Under the pieces are notes generated by a model, which ran no database searches, was not told the origin of the DNA, and saw nothing but the letters and a program-made list of their open reading frames with translations. 64,000 nt of DNA from Octopus vulgaris (lineage: Eukaryota), in assembly GCA_951406725.2 (NCBI GenBank), contig OX597835.1, forward strand, positions 2,046,001 through 2,110,000. The letters are read 5' to 3'. Made by a program: the position numbers and the translations under genes. Below, in pieces: positions 18,414 through 38,700 of this stretch. Within the stretch, counting starts at the first letter, position 1. Each line of letters starts with the position of its first letter.

Positions 18414-21400
18414 TCGTAATCATTTAATTAAGCACATATATATACTTGCCTGCTACACACATATAAATATGTGTATACATAAATATATGCTTATAAACAT
18501 AGTTCAAATTTACAGAAAACAAAAGATGAAGACAGTTGAAGGAACAACAAAGCAGGTTTATTGGTTTAATGCTTGGGAAGAATGGGAAAGTCTTTGGCAT
18601 TTTGAGCTTCTTTGACAGAAAGGGTTGAGAGGGAAAGCAAAGGTTCAGGTATTAACACGCATACATGTATATTCATGCACAAATGCAAAAAAGATATTTA
18701 TACACGCATACACAAATATATGTAATTACATATACACACACACACACACATGCTCATATTATATATAGATGTGTTTTGTTTATTTTTATAGATCTTTCTG
18801 GTGAAGAACCATGTGTTGAGATATGTATCGGTAAGTCTTTGACCTTTCTATGTTGCTGGCTGCCATGCATTTATGCGTGTGTAGTATTATGTTATATGTG
18901 TGTGTGTGTGTGTGTGTGTAGATCCAACTTAGGGTTTGGTTTTGTACTTTGGGTTTGCTTTCATTTATGTTTAATTAGATTATTGATATAAAATAAAACA
19001 GTGGCAGTTTCAGGAAAAAGCACTTGGTACACACAGTAAATACTATGATAATAATAAAAGAATTATCTGCAATAAGTTGTATGCCCTTTTCACTCTTTAA
19101 AAAAAAAAAAATTCTCCACCGAAGATAAAAAAATGAATATATTTAGAAACGATTATCTCCCCCTGAGCAGCAACTCTCTTTCGTTCTCTGTTTCTAACAC
19201 AGTATATACAGCTTCCTGTAAGACAGCCACAGTAAATTTTGTCTCCCCTGTATTTTATGTCTAACTCTTTTGTCTCCATCCCAAGCTATTCTACTCCAGT
19301 GGAAGTGACCTGGCCAAGTATCTGACTTATTGGATTGTCCAACTACCAACCTTCTCGCTCATACTTCAAATTCAAATCCATTTATAGTTTTAGGGTGTGT
19401 TTCTGAGGCAGAACACTTTATTCAGCAAGGCTTCTGATCAGCTAGCTGTCAGGGATTATATATATATATATATATACCAGATTATCTGGAAAAGTTATCT
19501 GCGATAGACTGATCAGAGATACACTTATGGAGAGACGTATCTCTCATTTCAATAAGCCAGAAAACCAGAGGAAACATTGAATTTCTTAGCTGGTCATTTA
19601 GGGGACCAAAAACCAGAGGAAACATTGAATTTCTTAGCTGGTCCTTAGGGGACCAGGGGAGATATTTACATCATCTTCATCATCATGAGCATCATTGTTT
19701 TTACATCTGCCTTTTTTTTCTGGTCTCCTGGGTTGGATGAGACTTATTGAGACAGTATTCAGGGTGGATGTTTTTTCTGTTGCCAACCCTTCCTTTATCT
19801 GTTTTCTGTCTCAGTCATTAGACTGTGGCAATGCTGGGGCATTGTCTTGAAGAACTTTTAGTTGAATGAATCATCCATAGTATTTACTTTTGTTGTTAAG
19901 CCTGGTGCTTATTCTATTGGTCTCCTTTTGCTAAATTGCTAACTTACGGGGGACATAAACAAACAAACACTAGTTGCCAAGCAACTTTCATTTTCATGGG
20001 CTTCTTTCATTTTCCATCTACCTAATCCACTCACAAAGCTCTGGTTGGCCCTGAGGCTATAGCAGAAGACACTTGCCAAAGGTGGAATACAGTGGGACTG
20101 AACTTGGAACCATGTGGTTGAGAGGCAAGCTTCTCACCACACAGCCATGCCTCTGCATCTTATCTGTTTTCCATGGAAGATATTTCTTGTTCCACTGGTT
20201 TTTAAATGTGAAAACTAATGAAACCACCAAACTACAGGACGAATTGTAAACACTTAATGTAAACACAGCAGGCTTCAGTACAGTTTTTGCTTACCAATTT
20301 CGTTGATGAGTCATTGGCCTACTTGAGTCTTATCCAAGATGCCATACAGTAGAATGGAACCTGAAACCATGGGATTACAAAATGAACTTCATAACAACCA
20401 TTGCTGCTCCTTATGTTTTAAAAATCTAATGCAGTGATTCTCAACTATTTTTTTACCTATGGACCCCTTTGATTCCTATTTTACTTGAGTGGACCCTCAT
20501 AGCCATTCAATGTTTAGCCCTTTAAACCCTCTAACATTTAGACTGGCCATGTCTGGCCAAATAGTTTTACCTGTTTTATGCTCAAACTGGTCAGCTCTGG
20601 CCTCTCACACCTGCCGTACAATATTGTTCTAAAAGCTGACAGTTACCTCATCAAAATATCACAGATGGAAGATGAATGATTGACCAATTCAAAGCTATGT
20701 GAATAAATAAGCATCACATTCAACACAGTGTCAATGGTAAATGGTTAAACAATCCGATTATATTTTTATAATTATTATTAGGAATTGTGGGGAAAATTAA
20801 AAAAAAAATATTTTGTGCCCTTTAAGAGTATATCTAACCAATTTATTGCCCACAAATTTTCACAACAAACTTTTATATGGACCCCAAAGATCCTCATGGA
20901 ATCTGGTTGAGAACCACTGATCTAAATTTACTCATAAAGAAGTAGAGATACTGAAATTAGTAGTTGAATTAGCAAAAGTTCAATACCTAAAGTTTTGTGA
21001 TTGATCATTGATTGATATTGCCATCATCATCATCATTTTACACCTGTTTTTCCATGTTTTCCATGGATGGAAAAGTCCATCTCAGCACAGCAGTATCTTG
21101 CTACTTGTTATTGTTCCTTCTCATCTTCACAATATCCAGCATCCCAAGCTCAGCATTTACTGTTTCTTTCTAAACCTCCCTCTCCATCCCTTTCCAATTG
21201 GATTTCTTAGCACTTCATCATTTAATTCTCGTCCTTCACATACATCACACATCTTCACCATCACTGTCAGCCTCTCTTGCACCCTATGGCCAAATGCTCA
21301 TTCATGCATGCAATTCTTTCCAGTCATTGCACATCTTCTGCATCATGTTTTACTATCATGCAACATTGCATTTCTTACACATGCACTCTATGTCTATCCT

Positions 21401-24400
21401 TAACTCAGACAAAATAGTTCCCTGAACTGGTTCCACCCCATTCCTATACCCTGGTTACTACACTTTCATAACACTAGCTGTCGACTATTTCTAGTAAGCT
21501 TCCTGGGTAATAAAAGGTAATCTCATCCTTTTTGTATATTGTGGATGTTATTGTGCAGTGTGTTGTTGTTGTGTAGCTCAGGTCAAGCTTAATTGAACAG
21601 ATCTCAGACCTATGATCAAAAACATGTTAGCTGTGACCATCCTGTCTTATTTGACCTCTGTTGGATTGCATTACCTAATGTGTCTCTTCATTATTAAACT
21701 GTTTCCATACCAACCTAACTAGGATTGTCCCCATTTCTATGGTAAAACCTTCCAACATAATTTTATTCAAGTGCCTTTTGTTTATTTTCAAATTATACTT
21801 CATGGGCAGCACTTTGTGGAGAGGGGATGAGTTGATTACTTCAACCCCCAGTACACAGCTGGTAATTAACTTATTGACCCTGAAAAGATGAAAGGCAAAG
21901 TTGATCCTGGTGAAATTTGAACTCAGAACGTAGCAGCAGACAAAATACCTATTTCTTTACTACACACAAGGGGCTAAACACAGAGGGGACAAACAAGGAC
22001 AGACATAGGTATTAAGTCGATTACATCGACCCCAGTGCGTACAGCTGGTAATTAACTTATTGACCCTGAAAAGATGAAAGGCAAAGTTGATCCTGGTGAA
22101 ATTTGAACTCAGAACGTAGCAGCAGACAAAATACCTATTTCTTTATTACCCACAAGGGGCTAAACATAGAGGGGACAAACAAGGACAGACATAGGTATTA
22201 AGTCGATTACATCGACCCCAGTGCGTAACTGGTACTTAATTTATTGACCCCGAAAGGATGAAAGGCAAAGTCGACCTCGGCGGAATTTGAACTCAGAACG
22301 TAGCGGCAGACGAAATACCGCTCAGCATTTCGTCCGGCGTGCTAACGTTTCTGCCAGCTCGCAGCAGACAAAATACCGCTCAGCATTTCACCCGGCATGC
22401 TAACGATTCTGCCAGCTTGCCTCCCTACCCACCAAAGGAATAACGACAGTTGTTTTACCAAATTTCATAAAAAATTCTTGATTACTTTTGTAGCTAAAAG
22501 CCACATTAGAAATATGGGCATAAAGTGCAATTTCAGTGATATTTAGCTGTTATTTCTCGCAAGTTAGGCAACTGTGTAGAGGTTTTCTCTTTTAGTGATA
22601 GGATGTTGTTTAGTCCCAGGTTATTCATGGTTGAGTAGACCTAAGCTCAAAAGCATTCCAGTTGAGACTATCAGGAACTGCAGCAATTTTGCACTCCTCC
22701 CCCACCATTTCATTTATTCATTTCTGGGGAAAAAGTATACAAATGACATTTGAATTGTCTATGAAACAGGGAGAGGGCCATGAAATGGATTCTTGCAAAG
22801 TTCTTGATTGTGGTGGAGGTGTTTAGTTGCTTTGGTTGGCCCTGATCCAGCAGACCTCCAACCAAAAGCATTCAGTCCACCCTGTAAGGTGGTTGCCAAA
22901 ACAGACAGTGAATCCTGGTGCACTCTTCTATCTAGCCAGCCCCTGTCAATCCATCCAACCCATGCCAGCATGGAAAACAGATGTTAAATGATGATGACGG
23001 CAATGTCTTAGACACCACATATATTGTAAGGAGTATTTGCCTCAGTGAGCCATTGAGGGATTCCGCAAATTTTTACTTCCAAGAATTGACCCTTCTCACA
23101 AATCCTAGGCCTTTAACGGGTCTGTTCAGCCAACAAATTTTGAATTCATCTTATAGACCCTCACTTTCTTTCTTTGTTGACCCGTTTCCCCAGATTTCTG
23201 AGACCCCAGGTTGAAAACTACTGTCCTTTGGAGATTAGAAATAGCAGCCAAATTTCTCTTGAAATGAGATGATACTGGACATTGTAGTCGAAGACAACAC
23301 AATACCTGAGAGGACAATTTGATCACAATTCAAGCACTTTTGATCATAGGCTGGCCCAGACAGGGTTGACCATGGGGGTACTTCTCTGTCAAAAGAAAAA
23401 AAAAACCCAGAATTATGCTTAGTATAAGGTGCACATCAAACATTAAGAGATCTGATGGTGATTGTAGGTCAAACTGATTGAAGTGGTTTGATCTCTGATG
23501 ACAGTCATAATTGAAATATTTTTATATCTAAGGGTGAAGATATTAGTCAGAAGGATAAGAATATTATTATTACCCTTTTCAAATTCTGCTGAGGTTGACT
23601 TTGCCTTTCATCCGTTTTGGGTCGATGTAATTGATTTATCCCCTCCAATATTATTATTATTACCCTTAGTTTAGAAATAGTGGTTCTTAGTTCAAAACAG
23701 TTTAGGATAACGTACACATCCAGGAATATGGCACCTGATGATGACTATGGCCAGAGATCAAACCATTTGAAACACTGGGTAAATGTAAATCTTTAATCAT
23801 ACAGCTGATAGATTGAGAAATCTTTATCTGAATGAAACTTGACTCTTATTACCATTTTTTTCCATAAATGCCAGCTTCCTGTCAGAGTTCTGGTAGTTTC
23901 AGTAATTCTTTCATTTCAATACTTTTACACAGACATCTTTTCTTTTTGCAGGTTAGAAAAATCTCACCAACTTTTTTAAAAAAAGATGATCAACTTTTGT
24001 ATTCTCTGAGTAAAATCAGTTGTTTTTTTTTTACTTCTTTTTATAGGAATTTAGAAACAATTTTTTTAATTTAAAACATTTTTTTTTTCCTGATAAATAG
24101 ATCTAACCCCTTTGAGACAAATAAGGGATTTTTATTATATATTTTATACTTTTATATGGAATAATAAAAGAGAATATTTTTTTGTAAAATAGTGATTTGT
24201 GTATTTTTTTTCTCAAAAGAAAATTTGCAATATCTTTATTGCAGAGCAAAATTTCTGAAGACAAAGCTATCGTATAAAAATGGTTTTTGTTTTTTAAGTC
24301 TAGCCTCTCATCCATTCTGGGCCATCTCTTGTTTTCTTAAAAGAGTCTCATAAAGCCATATCATAACCCTTTTAAGGCTGGGTATAAATAGCAAGTCTTT

Positions 24401-27400
24401 TTGTGTGGGACACCAAAAAAGTGGGCGGGGGAAAGGCATGATGATAATCAAATAACTTATCCTGCAAGTGTAGCTGATGTACCACACCCGTCTTCTTCAC
24501 AATTCAGCAGTGTGTCAATAAGCCCCACCCATCATCTGTGGAAGAAAGCATGTTGTGTCAATACGCCAGAACCGACCTTAATGGGTTAAAACAACAATTT
24601 TAGCAGATTTTAAAATAATCACTCTGGTTTTAGTTTATGTTTTTAATTGCTGATGATTTTCTTGGTATTTAGTTGGGACCCATTAACGATCTGCATTCAT
24701 TTCCCCTTGCGGTAAGCTTTGTTTCCTTTGATAAAATAGGCCTCAAAATTTGAAGGAGGGAAATGGTTGTTTTTACTGATACCAGTACTTGACTGGTCCT
24801 TTTTATCACTCAGGGGCATGAAAAACAAAGTTGACCTTGGAGGGATTTGAACTAGAATGTAAACCACCACAGCTAAAAACTGCACAGCATTTTGTTTGAC
24901 TCTCTAATGACTCTTCCACTCCTCTCCTGAGTTGTTGGAGTATCAGACAAATGCTGTATAGTATTTGTTCTGGCTCCTTTATATTCTGAGTTCAAACTCC
25001 ATCATGGTCAACTATAGATTATCATCATCTCATTATACTAGTCTTATTATTATTGCTCATGTTTTATGTTGGATGAGATGGTAAAACTTCATAGTATTTA
25101 GTTTCATTCCTCTATGTGCTGGGTTCAATTCTTGCTAGGGTTAACTTGCCTTTCATTTCTTCAGGGCTGATAAAGTAAGGAGCAGTAACATACTGTTATA
25201 GCCCCCAATCTCTCTCTGCCCCTGCCTAGTTGTGTGTTTTTGATAGTAATATGCAATTTGAGGGATGATTGTCTATTATTTCTTGCAAGCTGAGAGACTG
25301 TGTAGAACAGTACTTCCCAACTTCTTCACTGTCAAAGCTCCAGCCTCGCCTGGCCTCCGTGCCAGTGGCATGTAAAAAGCACCATCCGAGCGTGGCCGTT
25401 CACCAGCCTCATCTGGCACCTGTGTCGGTGGCACATAAAAAGCACCCACTACACTCACAGAGTGGTTGGCATTAGCAAGGGCATCCAGCTGTAGAAACAC
25501 CGCCACATCTGACTGGCCTGGTGCAGCCTTCTGGCTTCCCAGACCCCAGTTGAACCGTCCAACCCATGCTAGCATGGAAAGCGGACGTTAAACGATGATG
25601 ATGATGATTTTTTTTTTACATAGATTCTAGGTTTTTGGAAATTCTGTCTACTTAACTGGTTTTGAACTCAATTTCATGGACTTGCTCTGCTTTCTTTGGG
25701 AACCTCAGGGCTCCGCAGATCCTAAAGCACTGACACAAAACTTTTCTTCATCAGCTTCTCTTTTGTCATTTTTGATGGCTGAGAGGATATCTTTGTTCTC
25801 TGCCTGTGAAAAATGGCCCAGTCCACTTAGCCGTAAATAAGTGGCTTGTTGTAAAATGCATGATCAGCTTGTCCTGTTTTCTGTTCAGAAGAGGTATTGG
25901 GTCCCACTGTTGTTCTCTCTATTTCTAGATGTACAGTAGCTGTAACGATAGTCTCTCACCCACAGATATCAGGATACGAAAATGATTTGATTGTGTGTGT
26001 GTGTCCCTATCTGTCCGTCCAGTGTAGTCCACACCCTGGCTCCTACCATATGGCACCCTACAGATAAGAAAACTCCCTCTCTCTACTGCAACTTTCACCA
26101 CTTGTTAAATACCAAGCAGTTGGCCGCTGACATCTATTCTACAACACTCTCCACATGTTCATACTGCCACATGTTCATACTGCCACACTCCAACCTTTGC
26201 ATGTCCTGGCTGCTACATTATACATCTTTTACAACATGGCCATTCTACAATCCTCCACTTTCAACAACCTTCACCACATGTGCTACAACACTACAGCTCA
26301 CTCGCACACTGTAGTGCATATGTACACACACACACACATGCATACATACATACATACATATACACCCCCACCCACTATAACTCCAGCAAGCAATGGTACC
26401 TCTACATGGTTGTTCACTTTACTAAAAATAGCAACCAAATATAGATGCAGGTGTGGTTGTGTGGTAAGAATACAAGTGCAGGCTTGCTTCCCAGCCACAT
26501 AGTACTGAGTTCAGTCCCACTGCGTGTTACCTTGGGCAAGTATCTTCTACTATAGCCTTAATCCAATCAAAGCTTTTGAGTGGATTTGGTAGATGGAAAC
26601 TGAAAGAATCCCATTGTATATATATATATATAAATATATATGGGTGTGTGTGTCTTTGTGTATGTGCTTGTTCCCACCACTGTTTGATAACTGGTGTTGG
26701 TGTGTTTATGTCCCCATAACTTAGTGGTTCAGCAAAAGAGACTGATGGAATTAGTATAAGGCTTTAAAAAAAGATAAGTGTTGGGGATCAATTCTTGCAA
26801 CTAAATATTCTTCAAGGTGGTTGCAGTCTAATGAAACGAGTAAATGAGAGAAGATAAGCATCTCTCACCACTCTGCCACCTTAAAACAAGAAGAAAAAAA
26901 AAAAAAGGGAAACCCACAAGATAATTTGGTCCTAGATAGCTTTAAAAATGTGGGAGAGTCACTGTTGGAATGCCTTTGATTACAATTCTTCTGCATTAGA
27001 TTTGACCTCAGATTAAACATCATCATCATCAATAGCTGTTACTACACCACAGTTCGCATATGTTCCCAGTTACCGTATTATAACTTGCGCCACATTCACT
27101 GAACAATGCCATGGCACACAGTTGTGCCTGTGACTGTTTAGCATTTAAGTTTTCCTCCCTTTTTAAATAAAGGAGACAAAGACCCCTGGCAGGTGGTGGA
27201 GAGGAGAGGAGAAGCTAATGTTTGATATTGTTATTAGAGGAAATGTTAATTGTTGTGTAGGAAATAAAGAAATCAGTTTTGTGTGATAGTTCTGTCACCT
27301 ATGCAACTAAACCATTAATCTATGTCATGTGATATGCCACTTGTAATGAGCCTACTGACTAACCTTTAACCCATGCTATGTGATATGTCATTTACACTGA

Positions 27401-30400
27401 CTAACCCCTAACCCATATCTGGACCCCATATTCTACTTTTTGTTCAAACTGTCTAAATCTACTTTCTTACACATGTCCTCCAAAGGCATTCTAAAGTTAA
27501 GCAATCACAGCATTGAAATCCTGAGGCTATAAGTTAATGATGATTAATTGAATAAGGATTATATTTGACAGAGCAATCTGACTGCTAAAGGGTTAATCTT
27601 TGCTATGAGATAACTGCTTGATGTGATAAGCTGTTAGCTAACAGTTAATCTTTTGATACCAAGTTGCTCTTCTTGTTCTATGACACAAAACTGTTCTCTT
27701 TTAACGTGTTCAGGGTTAGAAATGCTTCCATCCATAATTCAATGTAAGCACCTTTTAACCCTTTAGCATTCAACCTGGCCTTATCCAGCCTAAATATTCT
27801 ACCTGATTCATGTCCACTCTGGCTGGATCTGACCTCTCACACCTACCCTACAATGTCATTCTAGAAATAAACAATCACATCACCACAGTCTTAAAACTAC
27901 AAGATAATCATCATCATCGTTTAACGTCCGTTTTCTGTGCTAGCACTGTTTGGACGGTTTGACCGGGGTCTGGGAAGCCAGGAGGCTGCACCAGGCTCCA
28001 GTCTGATCTGGCAGTGTTTCTACAGCTGAATGCCCTTCCAAACCCCAACCACTCCGAGAGTGTAGTGGGTGCTTTTTACGTGCCACTGGCACAGGTGCCA
28101 GGGGAGGCTGGCAGCGGCCACGATTGATTGGTGCTTTTTACGTGCCACTGGCACAGGAGCCAGTCAAGTCGGTGCTGATTAATTTGAATTGATAAGCATT
28201 ACATTTGACAGAGTAATCTGAATGCTTTGGCGTTAAGTTACATGCCAAACACCTGAGAAAAAAGGTGCCATTTATTAAATCTTCCTGAATTGTTAATTAT
28301 TTTCAGAAAATTGAAGTGCACAGACATTATAATATTTCATTAGAATTACAGTCAAGATGTGTCCTTTTCAGATGTTAGAATTCTAATATGCATGTTTTAT
28401 GCTAAACTATTAACTCATTAATTTTTATTGTATGTCATAACACTATACTGACCTCAGACCAATCAGGAGTCAGTGACTTTTTGTCATCTATCATCATCAT
28501 CCATCATCATCATCATCATCATGTCATTATATTAAAATTGATTTAATTTTGTCATGTGTAATTAATGTAATTTTGTATTCTACCTAAAATCATTTTAAAT
28601 TAATAATTATTTATTCTATAAATACTTATTCTAACAATTGCAGCGTGGAAGGTGTTTAGAAGCCATTTAAGAAACACACAAAAACTGTTAGATTCACTTC
28701 AACATTTGAATTTAATTTGCCAAAATATTTTCGTCGCTTTGACACCGCGACCTGTTCACTGACAAAATTCCATGCTGCAGCACAGAATTTTCTTAAATGT
28801 CTTATAAACACCTTCTATGCTGCAATTGTTTTCGTTACAGCATGTGATCAGGTCACTTGCTATGCAAGTACATCTCCATAATTCTTATTCTAATTTATTC
28901 TGCAAACAATCTCTTTGCTATACACTTGTTTCAACATAAACACCACCACGTCCTGCACACTGTACCACCACTGCCTCTGCTCCCACCACAACCTCCACCA
29001 TCACAACTACCAAAACCATTATCTCCACCCTGATCACCTTTACCATCTCTACTCCTATGACCACTATTCCTACCACCAAGATCAACACTACTGTCACTGC
29101 AATCTCTCTCCAGGGCGGTGGTGAGCTGGCAGAATTGTTACCTTGGAGCGAAATGCTTACTGGCATTTCACATGTCCTTATATTCTAAGTTCAAATTCTG
29201 CTGAGGTCGACTTTGCCTTTCATCCTTTCAGGGTTGATAAAATAAGTACCAGTTGAGCACTGAGGTCAGTATAATTGATTTACCCCTTGGCCCAAACTTG
29301 CTGACCCTTTTCTAGTATTTGAAACCAATGTTACTTCCTTAGGCTCACAGCATAAAAAAAGTTAAAAAAAGAAAAAAAAAACAGTGGTTAAGACAACTAT
29401 TGATGTTGACAGAATTGTGTTGATGACTGGATATAAAGTAGTTTGATGATGTGGACTGTATAGACACAATATGTAAAAGGCCCCTGTGCTGGTGACTTGT
29501 AAAAAGTACCTGGTACATTCTGTTGAGTGGTTGGCATCAGGAAGGGCATACAGCTGCAGAAACCAAGCTAAAACTGACCGGAGCCTAGTGCAGCTTTCTG
29601 GCTTACCTGTTCCAGTCAAAACGTCCAACCTGAGCCAGCATGGAAAACAGATGTTAGAGGAGGAGGAGGATGAGGATGACGATGATGTTGACTGAATGTA
29701 AAGGTGACGTTACTTGTTCCAGGACTGTGTTTCAATCAGTGGAAAATGCATCCAGACCAATGATGCATTGCCTCAAATGGAGGAGAATTCTTTGAAGGCG
29801 ATAAAAGTGTAAACATGTAAAACTAAGGGAATTAAATCTATATGCACATACATATACACATGCATACATACATCCATATATGTGTGTGTCCTTGCTTTCT
29901 CTGTCCCTGCTTGACAACAGGTATTGGTTTGTTTATATCCTTGTAACTTACCAGTTTGGCAAAAAAAAAAAATTGATAGAATAAATACCAAACTTAAAAT
30001 AAATACTGGATTGTACCTGCGTCTGATCGTTACCTGTGTCGCCTTACTGGCACTTGTGCTGGTGGCACGTGAAAACACATTCAAGCGAGGTTGTTGCCAG
30101 TACCACTGGACTGGCTCCTGTGCAGGTGACACATAAAAAACACCATTTCGAGCATGGCCGTTGCCAGTACCACCTGACTGGCCCTCATGTCAGTGACACA
30201 TAAAAGCACCCACTACACTCTCGGAGTGGTTGGCGTTAGGAAGGGCATCCAGCTGTAGAAACTCTGCCAGATCAGATTGGAAGTCTGGTGCAGCCATCTG
30301 GTTCGCCAGACCTCAGTCAAATCGTCCAACCCATGCCAGCATGGGAAGCGGACGTTAGACAATGATGATGATTATGATGATGATTATGATGATTGGTTTG

Positions 30401-31039
30401 ACTAAACCCTTGAAGGTGGTTTCCCCAGCATGGCTGCCATCTGATGATTGAAACAAGTAAAAGATAAATGATAAATTATCTTTATCTTCAACTTGTTTCA
30501 GTCATTAGACTGTGGCCATGCTGGGGCACTGCCTTGGAGAATTTTTCTAGTTGAATGAATCGATCCAAGTACTTTTTTAAACCTGATGCTTATTCTATTG
30601 ATCCCTTTTGCTGAACTGCTAAGTTATGGAAATGCAAAAAGACCAGCCCCAGTTGTCAAGCAGTGGTGGGGGACAAACACAGATACAAAGACACACAGAC
30701 ACTGATATATATATATATATATATATATGTGAAATAGAAAGATGAATAATCTTGTAGTAGATTAATCAAAAGTTTAACCGATACCTTAGTAGCAAAAATC
30801 ACAGCAGTAAACAGCACAGTTGGAGGTACAACCATATGGTGTTGCAACCGTGCGTTGGTGCGGATAATTGAAATTAAAACATTATTGTGAATTGAAGAAA
30901 TGGAGCTGAACGCAGATTGAACAGAAATCGTTTTATTTCATTCTACACGTGTTTCGAAAGGCACAAATCGGATTTTGGTAATTTGTGCCTTTCGAAACAC
31001 GTACGATTTCTGTTCAATCTGCGTTCATATTTCAATTCA

Positions 31040-31096
<57 letters not shown>

Positions 31097-32759
31097 CATA
31101 CATACATACAACAGGCTTTCAGTTTCTGTCTATCAGTCTGATCTGGCAGAGTTTCTACAGTTGGATGCCCTTCCTAACGCCAACCACTCCATGAGTGTAG
31201 TGGGTGCTTTTTACGTGCCACCGGCACAGGTGCCAGGGGAGGCTGGCAACAGCCATGATCGGTTGGTGCTTTTTACGTGCCACCAGCACGGAAGCCAGTC
31301 AAGGCGGCACTGGCATCGGCCACGTTCGGATGGTGCTTTTTACATGCCACCAGCACAGGTATCACAACTACAATTTCCTGTCAATTAACCATGTGTCACA
31401 TGGTTAAGAAAACTCTCCTCCGTCAGTAGAAACATTATCGACTTTGTAAAAATCAACAAGTTGGTTTGTTTACTTCTTTCCTGTGCTGAGTTCAATCCTG
31501 TTTCTCTCTTCCACAAGCCTGGAGGAGCCATTTTCTCTACTCAGCCTCAAACTAGATTCCACCATTTACCAGCATCTTGATCCTCTTCAGCGAGTGGATT
31601 CAGTCCTTACCTCTGGTGTGAGAGGCTGTGTACGATTAACTGTTCACAGGCAGCAGCTCATTTAACTCATTCATGGACATAATGACAGCAGTCCAACTGT
31701 GACCATCCTGTCTTTATTTCAAACATATTGTATTGGCAGACTGCATTATTCAATACATCCTTCCGTGTCATTGTTGAAGCTCGAGTCAGTCCTGAACCAG
31801 CAAACTTCGGATCAAAGACTTCATCTGAAATATGTTCATCCTGTGAAGACGATGAAGATAGGAACCTGTTCTCTGATGTCTTCATTTTAAGACAGCAATA
31901 TGATTTGAGGGAAGTTTGGCTTTTTCTTTTAGCAGTTCACATAACTGCATAGAAGCCTTCCTTGTTTTAATATTTTCAACGATGGAAGCAGTATCATTTG
32001 GGTTTTCGTCACCCTTGACAAAACAGATGCCTCCCCTATGATCACCATGTTGTAGCTGTGATCATCCTACGTTATTTCATTTTTACCTTTTTTAAAGAAG
32101 GTACAGTTTGAGAGAGAATATACTTCCTATTTTTAGCAGGATAGTTATCATGTAAAGAGTGTTTACCTTGTTATAATTCTCAGTACACTGTTTCAATAAG
32201 ACAAGACCAAGGCTGACCGGTTGCACTATTTGCACTAGTCTTCTCTTTGCCTTATCTAGGTGTGCTATAGATAAAAAAAAATATATTTAAGGCTTTAGAA
32301 AATCAATTCAAATTCCTGAGCACCTGGAAAAATGTATTCATAAATTTGTTGTAGAGCATAAAATTAATAAAATAAGGTAAGCAATAGTTTTCTATATTTT
32401 TTTCTAATTTTTAATTCTAAAATTTTTCTTTAAATTTCCATGGGAAGTGATCAGTAATTTTTTTTTCATTTTTCACATGAAGAGCATCTGTAGTTTTTGT
32501 TTTTTTGTCTGATATTTAGTGCATTACCAAGTCAAAAATATTAAGAGCCATTGGGCTAAGCAGTGCAGCTTGGCTTCAACATAACAATAAACACATATAT
32601 ATACATAGGTTTGTACCATGGGTTTGATATTGCATGGTTTTCTATGGCTCGATGCCCTTCTTAATGCCAACCACTCCAAGAGTCTAATGGGTGCTTTTAT
32701 GTGCCACCAGTACAGGTGCCATTTGCATGACTCCAGGATACTTCACTCACACACACACA

Positions 32760-32797
<38 letters not shown>

Positions 32798-35700
32798 TAA
32801 ATAAATGCGCCCTTTTTAAAGCCTAGCCTGGCTCATGGGCCCGGTTTCTTTGGTGTATGTGTTCTCCAGCTTGACGGTATGCCAGTCCATCACAGCGTTA
32901 CTCATTTTTACCAGCTGAGTGGACTGGAGCAACGTGAAATTAAGTGTTTTGCTCAAGAACACAACATGTCGCCCGGTCCAGGAATCGAAACCACAATCTT
33001 ACAATCATGATGCTGACACCCTAACCACTAAGCCATGCGCCTCCATATATATATTTATATATAAAATACCATATCTGCTCAAAGCTGTCTTCCATCGAAT
33101 TCCCAGACACAGTTTGTCTGTGAAGTCTTCCTCAGTGGGAAATACCAAGGAGAGATAACTCTAGGCAGACTTAAAGCTGTAGCTTTAAGTAAAGAAACGG
33201 TCAACCGCATTGGCTGAGTTGTGTTCCTAGGTCGCCTGGTCAGGGATCAAATCAACAATATCAGTGCCAAGCAGTGTTTAGGCATAAGCAAACTTTAGCA
33301 GCTTAATTAATATATATTTGTGACATATTTTACCTTCTAAAGGCAAATTTACAGCAGTTACTGTAGAGAAAAAAACAAACAAATTCTCTCTTATGGTCGA
33401 AGGTGTAAAAACACTATGCTTGGGGATCTGATAGGGGGCAGCACTAGGCAGATGTGGTGTTTTTACACGTTTTACCAGAAGAGAGAATTTTGTCTCCTCA
33501 GTAACCACTGTGAATTTACTTTTCAAAGTTGAGATGTGTCACAAATGTATTTTAATTAACTTAAAGCTTGCACGCATACGTGCTCCCCACCCCACATATA
33601 AGAGTGTGTGTGTGTGTGTGTGTGTATAGCATTTTATCCGTAAGAACAGTTACCCAACCGCACCATTTTCCCCATATAATTCTCTGTGCAACATTGTAGC
33701 GTTCGGTGTGAGGCTTCCCTGATTCACAGCCCCTCATACAGATGTGTTTTTAGCCCCTCATACAGATGTGTTTTTAGCCCCTCATACAGATGTGTTTTTA
33801 GCCCCTCATACAGATGTGTTCTTCCTTGTTTCTCTATTTGCAGCTGCTAAAGATTTACCCAATGACCGGACTGGACAACCTCCGAACCCTTTCGTCATGA
33901 TAACGACAATCACTCCACCTCAACAGACGTGGACCTTAAACAGCCACACTGAAATCATTGAGGTAGGATCATTTAAATCTATTCACTTCAGGTTTCTCCC
34001 CTCATTGACCTGGCAGACGGGGATATCTTTTACTAGATCCAGTCAGTAGATTGTGGCCATGCTGGGGCACTGGCTTCAAGAATTTTCAGTCAAATGAATC
34101 GATCCGAGGACTTTTCCTTTTTAAGCCTGGTACTTATTTTGTCAGTCTCTTTTGCCATACCTCTTAGTTATGGGGATATGAACATACCAACACTGGTCGT
34201 CAAACGGTTGGGTGGGTGGGGGGCACGCACACACACACACACACACATGATTGGCTTCTTTCAATTTCCGTCTACCAGATCCACTCTCAAGGCTTTGGTT
34301 GGCTCGAGGTTATAGTAGAAGACACTTGCCCGAAGTACACTCTGCAAAGTGGTTTGCACTAGGAAGGGCATCCAGCTGTAGAAACCACGCCAAAACAGAC
34401 AACGGGACCTGGTGCAGCTTCTGGCCTTGGCAGCTCCTGTCAAACCATCCAATCCATGCAAGCATGGAAAATGGATGTTAAAGAATGATGATGGTGGTGG
34501 TTGTGGTGGTGGTGGCAGCTCCAGCAGTGGGCACTCAGTTCAACAGCGCCACCATGTGGTTATTGGTCGTCTTCAGTAGAATGCACATGTATTTATTCAA
34601 GCTTTCTGTCTGAGGATTCTTTTCTTTACTTCCTCTTTGAAAAGTCTTGAAGAGACTACAAGGGATCGTCGTGCTTACTCCCTGTCCTACGTGGTCTCTG
34701 AAGCAGTGGTTCTCAACTGTTTCTTACCTACGGACTCGTTTGATTACCATTTTACTCTGTTGGACCTCCATTGCCGCTCGAAGCTCAAAAACTAGTTTTA
34801 TAGATATTCCTTTAAAAAATTCTTATTTTGTTTTTCACACATTCACTTGTGTCTAGGTTGAACTACGTAAAATGTTGGAGAAATAAAGCTTGCTGTTTCT
34901 TCCAATAAATACATCTGAAAGAAAAACTTTTTTCATAGACCCTTAAACTACTACTGTAATTTGCTTGCGTGGACCCCCCCAAAAGTCTTATAAGGACCCC
35001 AGTTGAGAACCACTGCTCTAAAGGTTATGAAAGAAAGAGGGAGTGGAGGGAGGTGACCCTGGAAGCATTCCCTCAATGGAGACACGAAGGCTGAAGGTGA
35101 TCAGAAGAACAACAGTTTCCATTCCTCTCTGTGTTGTTATCAGCACTCTTTGCTGTGTTTCCATTATTGCCTCTCTATTTACTTTGTGCCATTTTCTATT
35201 TCTCTCCTTTTTCTAGAGAAGCAATGATCCACAATTTCTGAAGACCATTGGTTTTGGGACGAACATCAAACTGAAGACACGAGTAAAGTTTACGGTTTAT
35301 CACGTCAATGAAAGGATGACCAATACAGTGAGTCCACACTGCTTACTCTCCTTCTCCCCCTCTTTCTCTCCTTTGTGTTTTTACTCCTTTTTCTATTTCT
35401 TTTTTGTCTCCGTTTTCTCTCTTTCTTACGTTCTCCTTTACCTTCTCTTCCCTGCTTTTATTATTTTAATTTTGTTATAAAAGACCTGAATACTTGTAAC
35501 ATAATGTATTCTGCTAAAGATACCCAGGGGCTGGGTGGTGGTGTTGATAATTCAGGCAATGAATTTAAGTCTACTACCTAAGAGTAGTGACAACCTTCCA
35601 TACAGTTTCTTATTTCTTTACTGCCCACAAGGGGCTAAACATAGAGGGGACAAACAAGGACTGACAAAGGGATTAAGTCGATTATATCGACTCCAGTATG

Positions 35701-38700
35701 TAACTGGTACTTAATTTATCGACCCCCGAAGGGATGAAAGGCAAAGTCGACCTCGGCGGAATTTGAACTCAGAACATAACAGCAGACAAAATACTGCTAA
35801 GCATTTCGCCTGGCGTCCTAACGTTTCTGCCAACTCGCCAACTTCCCACACAGTTTCTGCCTACCAAATTTCACCGAAGACTGTAGTTGCTTCCAGACTA
35901 TGATTTAAGGCACTTGCCCAAAGCACTGTACTGTGAGATAAAACCTAATAGCCTCTAGGATACTTATGCTCAGACTAGTTTTACAAAATGGAGCAGCAGC
36001 AACTATTATTTCTGCCTCTACTCCTCAACTGGGGCTACCAGAGAAACACAAAGATTGACTTTGTAACACCCTTTTGCAGACTCCCTCATCAACAGATGTC
36101 AGTGACCTTCCCTTCGTGACCAGTGACTTCAGTGGACATGTTGGGCACCATCCAAGAGGTTTCCCGAGAGTGCATGGAGGCCATGCAGTTGGTTCCTGCA
36201 ATGAGGTTGCTGGGGTTCTGTGATGCAAATGACCTTACAATCTGCAATACTAACCCCAGAACTCCAACCAACTACCTGTTCACCTATCAGTCCAGTAGAC
36301 ACACAAGTCAGGTTGGCTACATTCTCACCAGAAAGGGACTGACATCTTGTTCAGAGGGAAGTCTTGTAATCTCAGTCATTAATTTGTATGGAAACCAAAT
36401 GAAGCTCTAACCTTATGAGTCCTAGGGTTTATAATGGACCAAAGTCTAACTAAAAGTTTCAACACTCTTCTTGACAAGGACAGACGAGGACCCTTAGTTT
36501 AGGAATAAGGATTCCTAGTTTTGAATCTAATCTGATACTATTTACATATCCTAGAATAAGACACATGAAATCAAACTAACCGAAACATAGAATACAAGAA
36601 AATGGATTAGGCTTGGCTTATAAGCCCAGGCATAAAGGCAAAGGCATTTGAAATATGCCACAAACACTTGGTTTTGGTGGGGCCAGTCTCACTGGGTGAG
36701 GACCTGGGCTAGCCTAGTGGTTCTTAACCGTGGACCATATGGCCTTTGGGGTCCATATAAGATTTTGTTGTTAAAATTTATATGCAATAAACTGCTTATA
36801 CTTCTACAATATACTTTTTTTATGCAATTCCTAATAATATTTAATGATAAAAATAATGTAGGATTTTTTTTTATACATACATTGGTTGCCTACGGAGGTC
36901 CAGAAGAGAAAAATAGGAATCAAAGGGGTCAGTTGGTAAAAAATGGTTGAGAACCTCTGATCAAGTTGATTGTTACAATGGAAGTGAAATTTCATAAATT
37001 AAAGACTGTACTGAAGCTCATCATATATGAACGAATGTGTGTTTGTGTGTGTCTTTGCATCAACACTGCTTTTGTAGTAGAATGTCCCACAGCAGTTTGA
37101 TGTGTGGAGAATAAAGTACCTTACTTGAAAAATAAAGAATTGGCATTAGGAAGGGTGTCTGACTTTGGAAATAGTATCTTGACAAGTCTCAGGTAACCCA
37201 TGCAAAGCATTGAAAAAGCAGGTATTAAAACAATGGTATTCCATCTCTAAATCTGAAGTTAAAATTCTGAAATTTTATTACAAAATTTTATTACAAAAAA
37301 AAAAAAAAAATCATCTCAAACATTTAGACATTTAACTTGTATTCTTGAACTTTTAATTCGTTAATCTCTTATTCTTTTAATCTATTTCAGATGTCACAGT
37401 TGGGTTATGTGATGTTTGATCTGAAGTCACTTCTGGCGAAACCTGATAAAAAATTGCATTTACCATTAATGTAAGTTTCTGTCTATATATTCCTTCTCAA
37501 ACCCTCCAAGAAGCTTTTATATCCTTTTAAGTGAACTATATCACATGCAACCCTCCCCTTTTCTACAAATTTGTCTTTGTGCCTATATTAGAAGAACTGG
37601 CTAAATTGATCTAATCTTGCAATCATTTTGGCTCTTTACATTCTGAGTTCAAATTCTAACAAGTTCAACTTTTGCCTTTTTATCCTTCTGGGGTCAATAA
37701 AATAAGTACCAATCAAATAAGTGGGGTTGATAGAATTGACTGTTTCAAAAGATTTCTGGCAGTCTGTCTACAGCCCTGGTTGTAAACCATTTTCCACCTG
37801 TCGGCTCTTTTCATTACTACTTTGCTCTGGTGTCTCCCCCACCCCTTCAATGTTTAAAAACTAGTTTTATAGATACTTCTTTTGAAATTCCTATTTTGCT
37901 TTTCCTGCATTCACTTGTGTTGGTTGAACTATGCATAACATTAGAGAAAGAAATCTAATAAATACATCTAAAGGAAAACGTTTTCACAGACCCTTAATAT
38001 ACTCTTGTGGGCCCTCAATTTACTATTTTGGTTGCATGGACCCCTAAAATCTTATATGGACCCCAATTGAGAACCACTGGTCTACAGCAAGAAATTATTA
38101 TTATTATTATTAGCATGTTGGGCAAAATGCTTAGTGGCATTTTGTCTGTCCTTACGTTCTGAGTTCAAATTCCACCAAGGTTGACTTTGCCTTTCATCCT
38201 TTCGGGGTTGATGAAATAAGTACCAGTTACGCACTGAGGTTGATGTAATCGACTTGCCCCCTCCCCTCAAATTTCAGGCCTTGTACCTAGAGTAGAAAGA
38301 GTAGCAGAATCATTTGCTTGCTGGACAGATTGTCTTGTGTCTGTTCTGACTTCTTTGCCTCTTATTAAAGTAAACTTGACTGCAATTTCCAGCATGTTCC
38401 GTGACTACATAGAGATTTGCCTGTTGTAATATCCTCTGTGTGCAAACCTGTGTTTTGTAGGTCCCCTGATTCTTCTCCTGCTGGTCAAATACAAATTACT
38501 GCTTGGGTCCACGATGAATCCATTCTTATTGAAGATAATTCCAGGGTAATTATGCTCTCTTTTTGCTCATTTTATTCTTTGTCTGATGTCATCCAGTTGG
38601 TTGGTTATGGCCATGCTGTAGCAAAGCTATCATCAGAAAAATACTTCATCTAAATTACTGATGGTAATTAATATTTTACTTGTAGAATTGTTAGAGCATT

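Follow-up and report, generated by a model that had tools for sequence, protein, structure and literature searches.

The window is the whole 64,000-nucleotide stretch of Octopus vulgaris DNA that was analyzed. On its minus strand, at 28766-28716, lies a minimal hammerhead motif inside a truncated pseudo-LTR (pLTR) copy of a Penelope-like element. The motif had been predicted from the letters of the window, and its place, helices I and II, the GAA and the palindrome were all confirmed. Compared with the box CUGANGA, the core reads GUGAACA and is changed at positions 3 and 8 (G3 at 28759, C8 at 28754). The features of the insertion, followed by those of the motif in the 5' to 3' order of the minus strand, are:

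28625..28634: left copy of a 10-bp target-site duplication, with a 2-base overlap with the element end
28633..28779, minus strand: truncated pLTR copy with the hammerhead, 86% identical to the pLTR of locus L051 and 96% to a closer copy
28633..28666, minus strand: first 11 codons of the element ORF (ATG 28666-28664, 49 nt past the hammerhead), with a start shared with the L051 and L052 ORFs
28776..28884, plus strand: inverted second copy, with a 16-nt pLTR start, an internal deletion, and the ORF start plus about 50 bases
28884..28893: right copy of the 10-bp target-site duplication
28760..28766, minus strand: 5' arm of helix I, pairing with 28716-28722
28753..28759, minus strand: catalytic core box GUGAACA, aligning with CUGANGA of the sister families
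28752, minus strand: an additional, unpaired G that separates position 9 from helix II, in 21/21 aligned rows
28733..28751, minus strand: helix II, 5 bp from G10.1-C11.1 (28751-28747 with 28737-28733), and a 9-nt loop
28730..28732, minus strand: G12-A13-A14
28724..28729, minus strand: A15.1 to U16.1, the 6-nt palindrome AAUAUU that replaces helix III (a 4-nt palindrome in an older family)
28723, minus strand: U17, with the predicted cut 3' of it (28723/28722), as follows from hammerhead numbering
28716..28722, minus strand: 3' arm of helix I, with one G-U in the window copy

The motif had also been placed inside a fold-back element. Inverted arms are indeed present (28633-28674 / 28789-28830, 90%), but a separate fold-back element or MITE was rejected, since the arms derive from two partial pLTR copies that face each other and whose ends vary across loci. 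The insertion has the usual form of an inverted Penelope pair, its second copy being partly deleted, and the deletion takes out the hammerhead of that copy. Inverted pairs were found in many of 30 loci of the repeat, and this form is common in Penelope-like elements (Craig et al., 2021; PMC8557442; this and the other cited papers are used as far as their text was accessible). As a truncated lone relic whose neighbouring copy is without the motif, the window copy is likely inert. A convincing long frame was sought in window 20000-38000 and none was found. Around the insertion, at window 27999-28177, 29479-30375 and 31134-31359, lie several copies of other dispersed repeats in either orientation.

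Folding and pair counts closed both helices I and II of the three-way junction. The 51-base fold contained both helices at -13.2 kcal/mol (z -1.93), and 6 of 200 shuffles were equally good. In the minimum-energy fold helix I was slipped by one base, the hammerhead register being 1.4 kcal/mol dearer. Folding by itself is weak support for a hammerhead and, judged from sequence comparison, the case rests on homology. The window copy lacks the literal CUGANGA box, and GUGAACA stands in its place in 7,036 of 7,671 matches of the family, hence the motif is a variant and no plain member of the class. Its positions 3 and 8 are Watson-Crick complementary, and U4, G5, A6, A9, G12, A13, A14 and A15.1-U16.1 are retained; the pair G10.1-C11.1, like the extra base after position 9, occurs in all 21 aligned rows.

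An Rfam search of the window stretch gave no hammerhead match, which, together with the modest folding z-score, would fit a chance look-alike within the repeat that is unrelated to hammerheads. Rfam also gave no hammerhead match on seven loci, among them five with canonical motifs, so the canonical motifs were missed in 5/5 loci given. The miss of the window motif is therefore not due to the swap. A look-alike is moreover contradicted by column-by-column homology with the canonical CUGANGA motifs of sister elements, which supports the hammerhead identity of the motif, and its probability is considered next to negligible. The expectation that CUGANGA-based searches miss the motif holds for searches in which CUGANGA is fixed; Rfam misses the canonical sisters too.

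The stretch that holds the motif is a repeat, with 2,035 first-look candidates, 40 of which were scored, and full-length units were reached by tracing the sequence downstream of motif copies. These units are about 4.3 kb long. At locus L051 the motif is present in both flanking repeats (at 742 and 5003, 4,261 bases apart), which are 98% identical over 921 bp. The Penelope context was borne out: the motif lies in the pLTR just upstream of a single ORF in which reverse transcriptase (RT) motifs and a C-terminal YQI...YIGET motif can be read from the translations, and which we take to be an RT and GIY-YIG frame. Pfam searches with three ORF pieces gave nothing above the cut-off; among the 120 homologues listed, two carried PF00078 and one PF01541. 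The element also had pLTRs in a partly tandem arrangement, truncated copies in inverted orientation, and AT-rich targets. The Naiad clade, with an N-terminal endonuclease and no canonical hammerhead, was rejected, as the endonuclease is C-terminal here. At L075:2471-5545 (minus strand) about 130 residues separate the RT motifs YPSID and GGAIG, which looks like a fingers insertion in a protein with a C-terminal endonuclease; the usual YPSID-GGAIG spacing is the basis for calling it an insertion. Such RT insertions have been tied to clades with an N-terminal endonuclease (Craig et al., 2021; PMC8557442). The RT motifs of the element were not found in the supplement of that paper.

Upstream of the motif, a branch-point-like and an acceptor-like sequence were retained in 9 of 51 copies, the acceptor-like stretch lying just before the base at which 12 of 51 copies have another fixed start, GAG. 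Start forms were seen at L051:4960-4990 and in L036, L037, L065, L093 and L187. The GAG-start and acceptor-like copies are possibly spliced and unspliced forms, respectively; a splice donor for a pLTR intron was sought in the element copies and not found. At L056:1540-2900 about seven same-strand pLTR copies stand 170-190 bases apart, a natural tandem where dimers could form.

The proposed family-wide fixation of G3:C8 was checked across the genome with a 22-letter pattern. G3 and C8 occurred together in 7,036 of 7,671 matches, while 228 had another base at position 3 and 407 had G3 with another base at position 8. The reversed control of the pattern gave 0 matches against 7,036, thus the motif is not due to chance. 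By eye, the first 100 of the 228 non-G3 matches included eight with C3 and none with C3:G8, and the first 100 of the 407 non-C8 matches were divided into G8 (34), A8 (15) and T8 (51). In contigs of three runs, coded as organisms B, C and D that may not be distinct, no other letter reached 5% at positions 3 and 8 among the 40 of 49 rows listed.

The family consensus keeps GUGAACA and the pairing of helices I and II. Helix II was paired in 96% and showed two-sided changes in 4/5 pairs. On 21 chosen rows the covariation score was reached by 0 of 500 shuffles, and all slid controls scored lower; three metagenome rows in this alignment are partly misaligned. As positions 3 and 8 were kept constant when these rows were picked, their 21/21 pairing of 3:8 is by construction.

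The direction of the swap was judged from relatives of the element. Family B, the nearest RT relative of the window's family (family A) in the genome, is 63% identical to it in the RT core and carries a C3:G8 motif at the homologous place, in the same stem frame and just upstream of the homologous ORF start. A canonical-core pattern in the same helix II frame had 1,520 genome matches; the canonical copies fetched (20 + 13) belong to B and related families, and in most of them the homologous ORF start follows. One protein with the source label Octopus vulgaris is 98.9% identical to the sister family. In an RT tree, midpoint-rooted and built without named reference proteins, A and B are sisters with support 100/99, and three canonical metagenome relatives fall outside. 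These three (L116, L118 and L128, of 31 metagenome relatives) have a canonical C3:G8 motif just after the ORF. The other 28 loci, many of them too short, were without a hammerhead at the thresholds used, and G3:C8 was found in none of the 31. The swap is thus compensatory as predicted, with C3:G8 in the homologous sisters and G3:C8 in family A. Since the sister families and 3/31 metagenome relatives carry C3:G8, G3:C8 appears to be derived and to have arisen once, as a single event and without repeated covariation.

The family-B protein of L070 contains a long, low-complexity Asn/Ser-rich insertion at ORF residues ~250-510 that family A does not have. No RT relative was found in viral contigs. 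The G3:C8 pattern occurred there in 39 stretches, of which five passed a loose helix scan and none had both a palindrome and a usual N17, and these were read as chance. One of the viral contigs (L151:290-345, minus strand) has GUGAGCA with a 4-bp helix II and a 9-bp helix I, but G17, and is probably a chance occurrence in GC-rich DNA.

An older and more decayed family, E, gave 85 matches when positions 3 and 8 were left free. Among the 30 of these that were fetched, 16 were G:C, 13 were singly or doubly decayed and one was C:G, the last being a family-B copy. Over the core, inner helix I, helix II, A15.1, U16.1 and N17, all 33 constrained positions are identical between E and the younger family-A consensuses; in the A-old consensus one of the 33 differs and yields a G-U. 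E and A differ at N7, loop II and helix III (4-nt and 6-nt palindrome, respectively), and their flanks are identical in 93 of 132 columns (~70%). By our own arithmetic, the odds of 33/33 identities are ~1e-5 to 2e-4 at a background identity of 70-77%. The core and stems thus seem to have been kept in E and A while free positions and flanks changed.

This comparison also bears on an origin by drift, in which two unrelated substitutions in a founder element would have become fixed at positions 3 and 8 without any selection to pair. That only one event is seen, and that core selection in the clade is leaky, would agree with such an origin. If two of the nine fixed core positions changed at random, however, the odds that they would be 3 and 8 and that the new bases would be complementary are about 1 in 100 (own arithmetic), and G3:C8 has lasted from E into three or more A subfamilies, over a flank divergence of ~30%. 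Drift is accordingly regarded as quite improbable.

Taken together, the motif is best read as a minimal hammerhead with a G3:C8 core in the pLTR of a Penelope-like element. It is likely to have kept slow cleavage, in dimeric form and probably aided by the protein of the element; we give this reading a probability of roughly 0.65. In such a ribozyme G3 would pair with C8, so that the 2'-OH of position 8 would still serve catalysis. Within a tandem transcript, the palindromes of two copies would pair to form helix III, and a slow, protein-helped cut after U17 would trim the RNA to unit length. The core would have originated by one ancestral double change via an unpaired intermediate, which could survive because cleavage may not be strictly needed for transposition. 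In a protein-requiring Penelope/Poseidon hammerhead, engineered C3G/G8C partly restored cleavage (PMC11167929), and G8C is described as partly rescued by C3G (review, PMC8495972). According to PMC3884650, positions 3 and 8 pair in no state other than the active conformation, and G3-C8 works better when C17 is absent, the latter being a 'data not shown' remark. In the G3 families N17 is U (23/30 in E), and in the C3 sisters it is mostly C (9/13). U17 is not unique to G3 families, as it was also found with C3 in a young B subfamily and in three other copies. The bias of U17 towards G3 would fit the C17 remark and is taken as a lead only.

Several observations argue against a ribozyme that the element requires. 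The young B subfamily (L070:1629-1678, L070-L074) has the core CUGAUGC (A9C), with 3,609 exact matches and intact 1,312-codon frames, while older B members retain A9. G3:G8 was found in 238 family-A copies and is an estimated ~8x commoner than the mirror change at position 3; these copies are not one clean subfamily, as the 30 of them that were fetched (L245-L274) sit on mixed subfamily backgrounds. The clade can therefore spread with non-consensus cores. Moreover, the palindrome duplex is all A-U and nearly without stability (-0.2 kcal/mol), and two-strand folding favoured a different dimer in which helix II is paired between strands. Mutation of the PAc ribozyme left in vitro insertion unchanged, and none of the RNA ends coincided with the cut site (Frangieh et al., 2024; PMC11167929).

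The A9C sister with its intact frames, the G3:G8 copies, the weak helix III, the dispensability of cleavage in vitro for PAc and the location of the motif, downstream of a likely 3' splice site and ahead of the start codon, would all suit a hammerhead-derived fold, including the 3:8 pair, that has negligible cutting activity and is retained for a structural or protein-binding role (in the recognition of the RNA, its splicing or the control of its translation). However, the retained positions are exactly the catalytic ones while the free N7 varies, and a pair confined to the active conformation speaks against such a role, which is judged unlikely although it is the most serious competitor of a slowly cleaving ribozyme.

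A further step would be to regard the motif as the first G3:C8 hammerhead that occurs in nature, is under selection and is active, present in thousands of copies, in which a C17-to-U17 change avoided a G3-C17 trap and which was reached via a tolerated unpaired intermediate. From the sequences compared here, this fuller account is put forward tentatively, as possible but doubtful. The hammerhead survey of Lunse from 2017 is said to hold ~150,000 variants. That survey and some supplements lie outside the coverage of the searchable literature, in which no natural G3:C8 but only engineered mutants were found, and an earlier report is possible. G3:C8 is not mentioned in the accessible text parts and one supplement file of PMC4209133, and no natural G3:C8 appears in the accessible text of PMC6765202, PMC10085705, PMC6155905 and bioRxiv 10.64898/2026.07.22.740005.

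The octopus motif is nature's equivalent of the classic exchange by which the C3-G8 tertiary pair was proven in the laboratory. With homologous C3:G8, G3:C8, G3:G8 and A9C forms, one genome offers a panel on the role of cleavage in Penelope transposition. Searches in which CUGANGA is fixed, as in the accessible methods of PMC8557442, are blind to swapped motifs. If the G3:C8 core is active, CUGANGA censuses miss a ribozyme class, and retroelement clades said to be hammerhead-free may hide swapped cores.

Of the changes at the 3:8 pair, natural U3:A8 and engineered C3G/G8C were already known, and what appears to be added here is a natural, family-wide G3:C8. With the minimal type I hammerheads of metazoan Penelope elements (Cervera and de la Pena, 2014; PMC4209133), the octopus motif shares the place in the pLTR, the extra base after position 9, G10.1-C11.1, a palindromic helix III, H at 17, mostly lone truncated copies and inverted pairs. 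The core covariant of that study is U3:A8 (~1,300 hits in Schistosoma), whereas the octopus covariant is the reciprocal G3:C8, two transversions away from the consensus. Covariation of 3:8 is likewise shared with the natural hammerhead core variants of Perreault et al. (2011; PMC3088659), where, in the accessible text, it is U3:A8 only. PAc (Poseidon, Anolis; PMC11167929) has the same swap with partial rescue and protein-assisted cleavage, but as a laboratory mutant, whereas in the octopus it is the natural state of ~7,000 copies; the PAc motif overlaps the start codon, whereas the octopus motif lies upstream of it. In its architecture the octopus element resembles Neptune/Nematis (Craig et al., 2021; PMC8557442), with which it shares the RT, a Cys-rich linker, a C-terminal GIY-YIG, pLTRs, inverted truncated copies, and AT-rich and (TA)n targets. 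This likeness is one of architecture, and the octopus RT differs by its long insertion between two core motifs.
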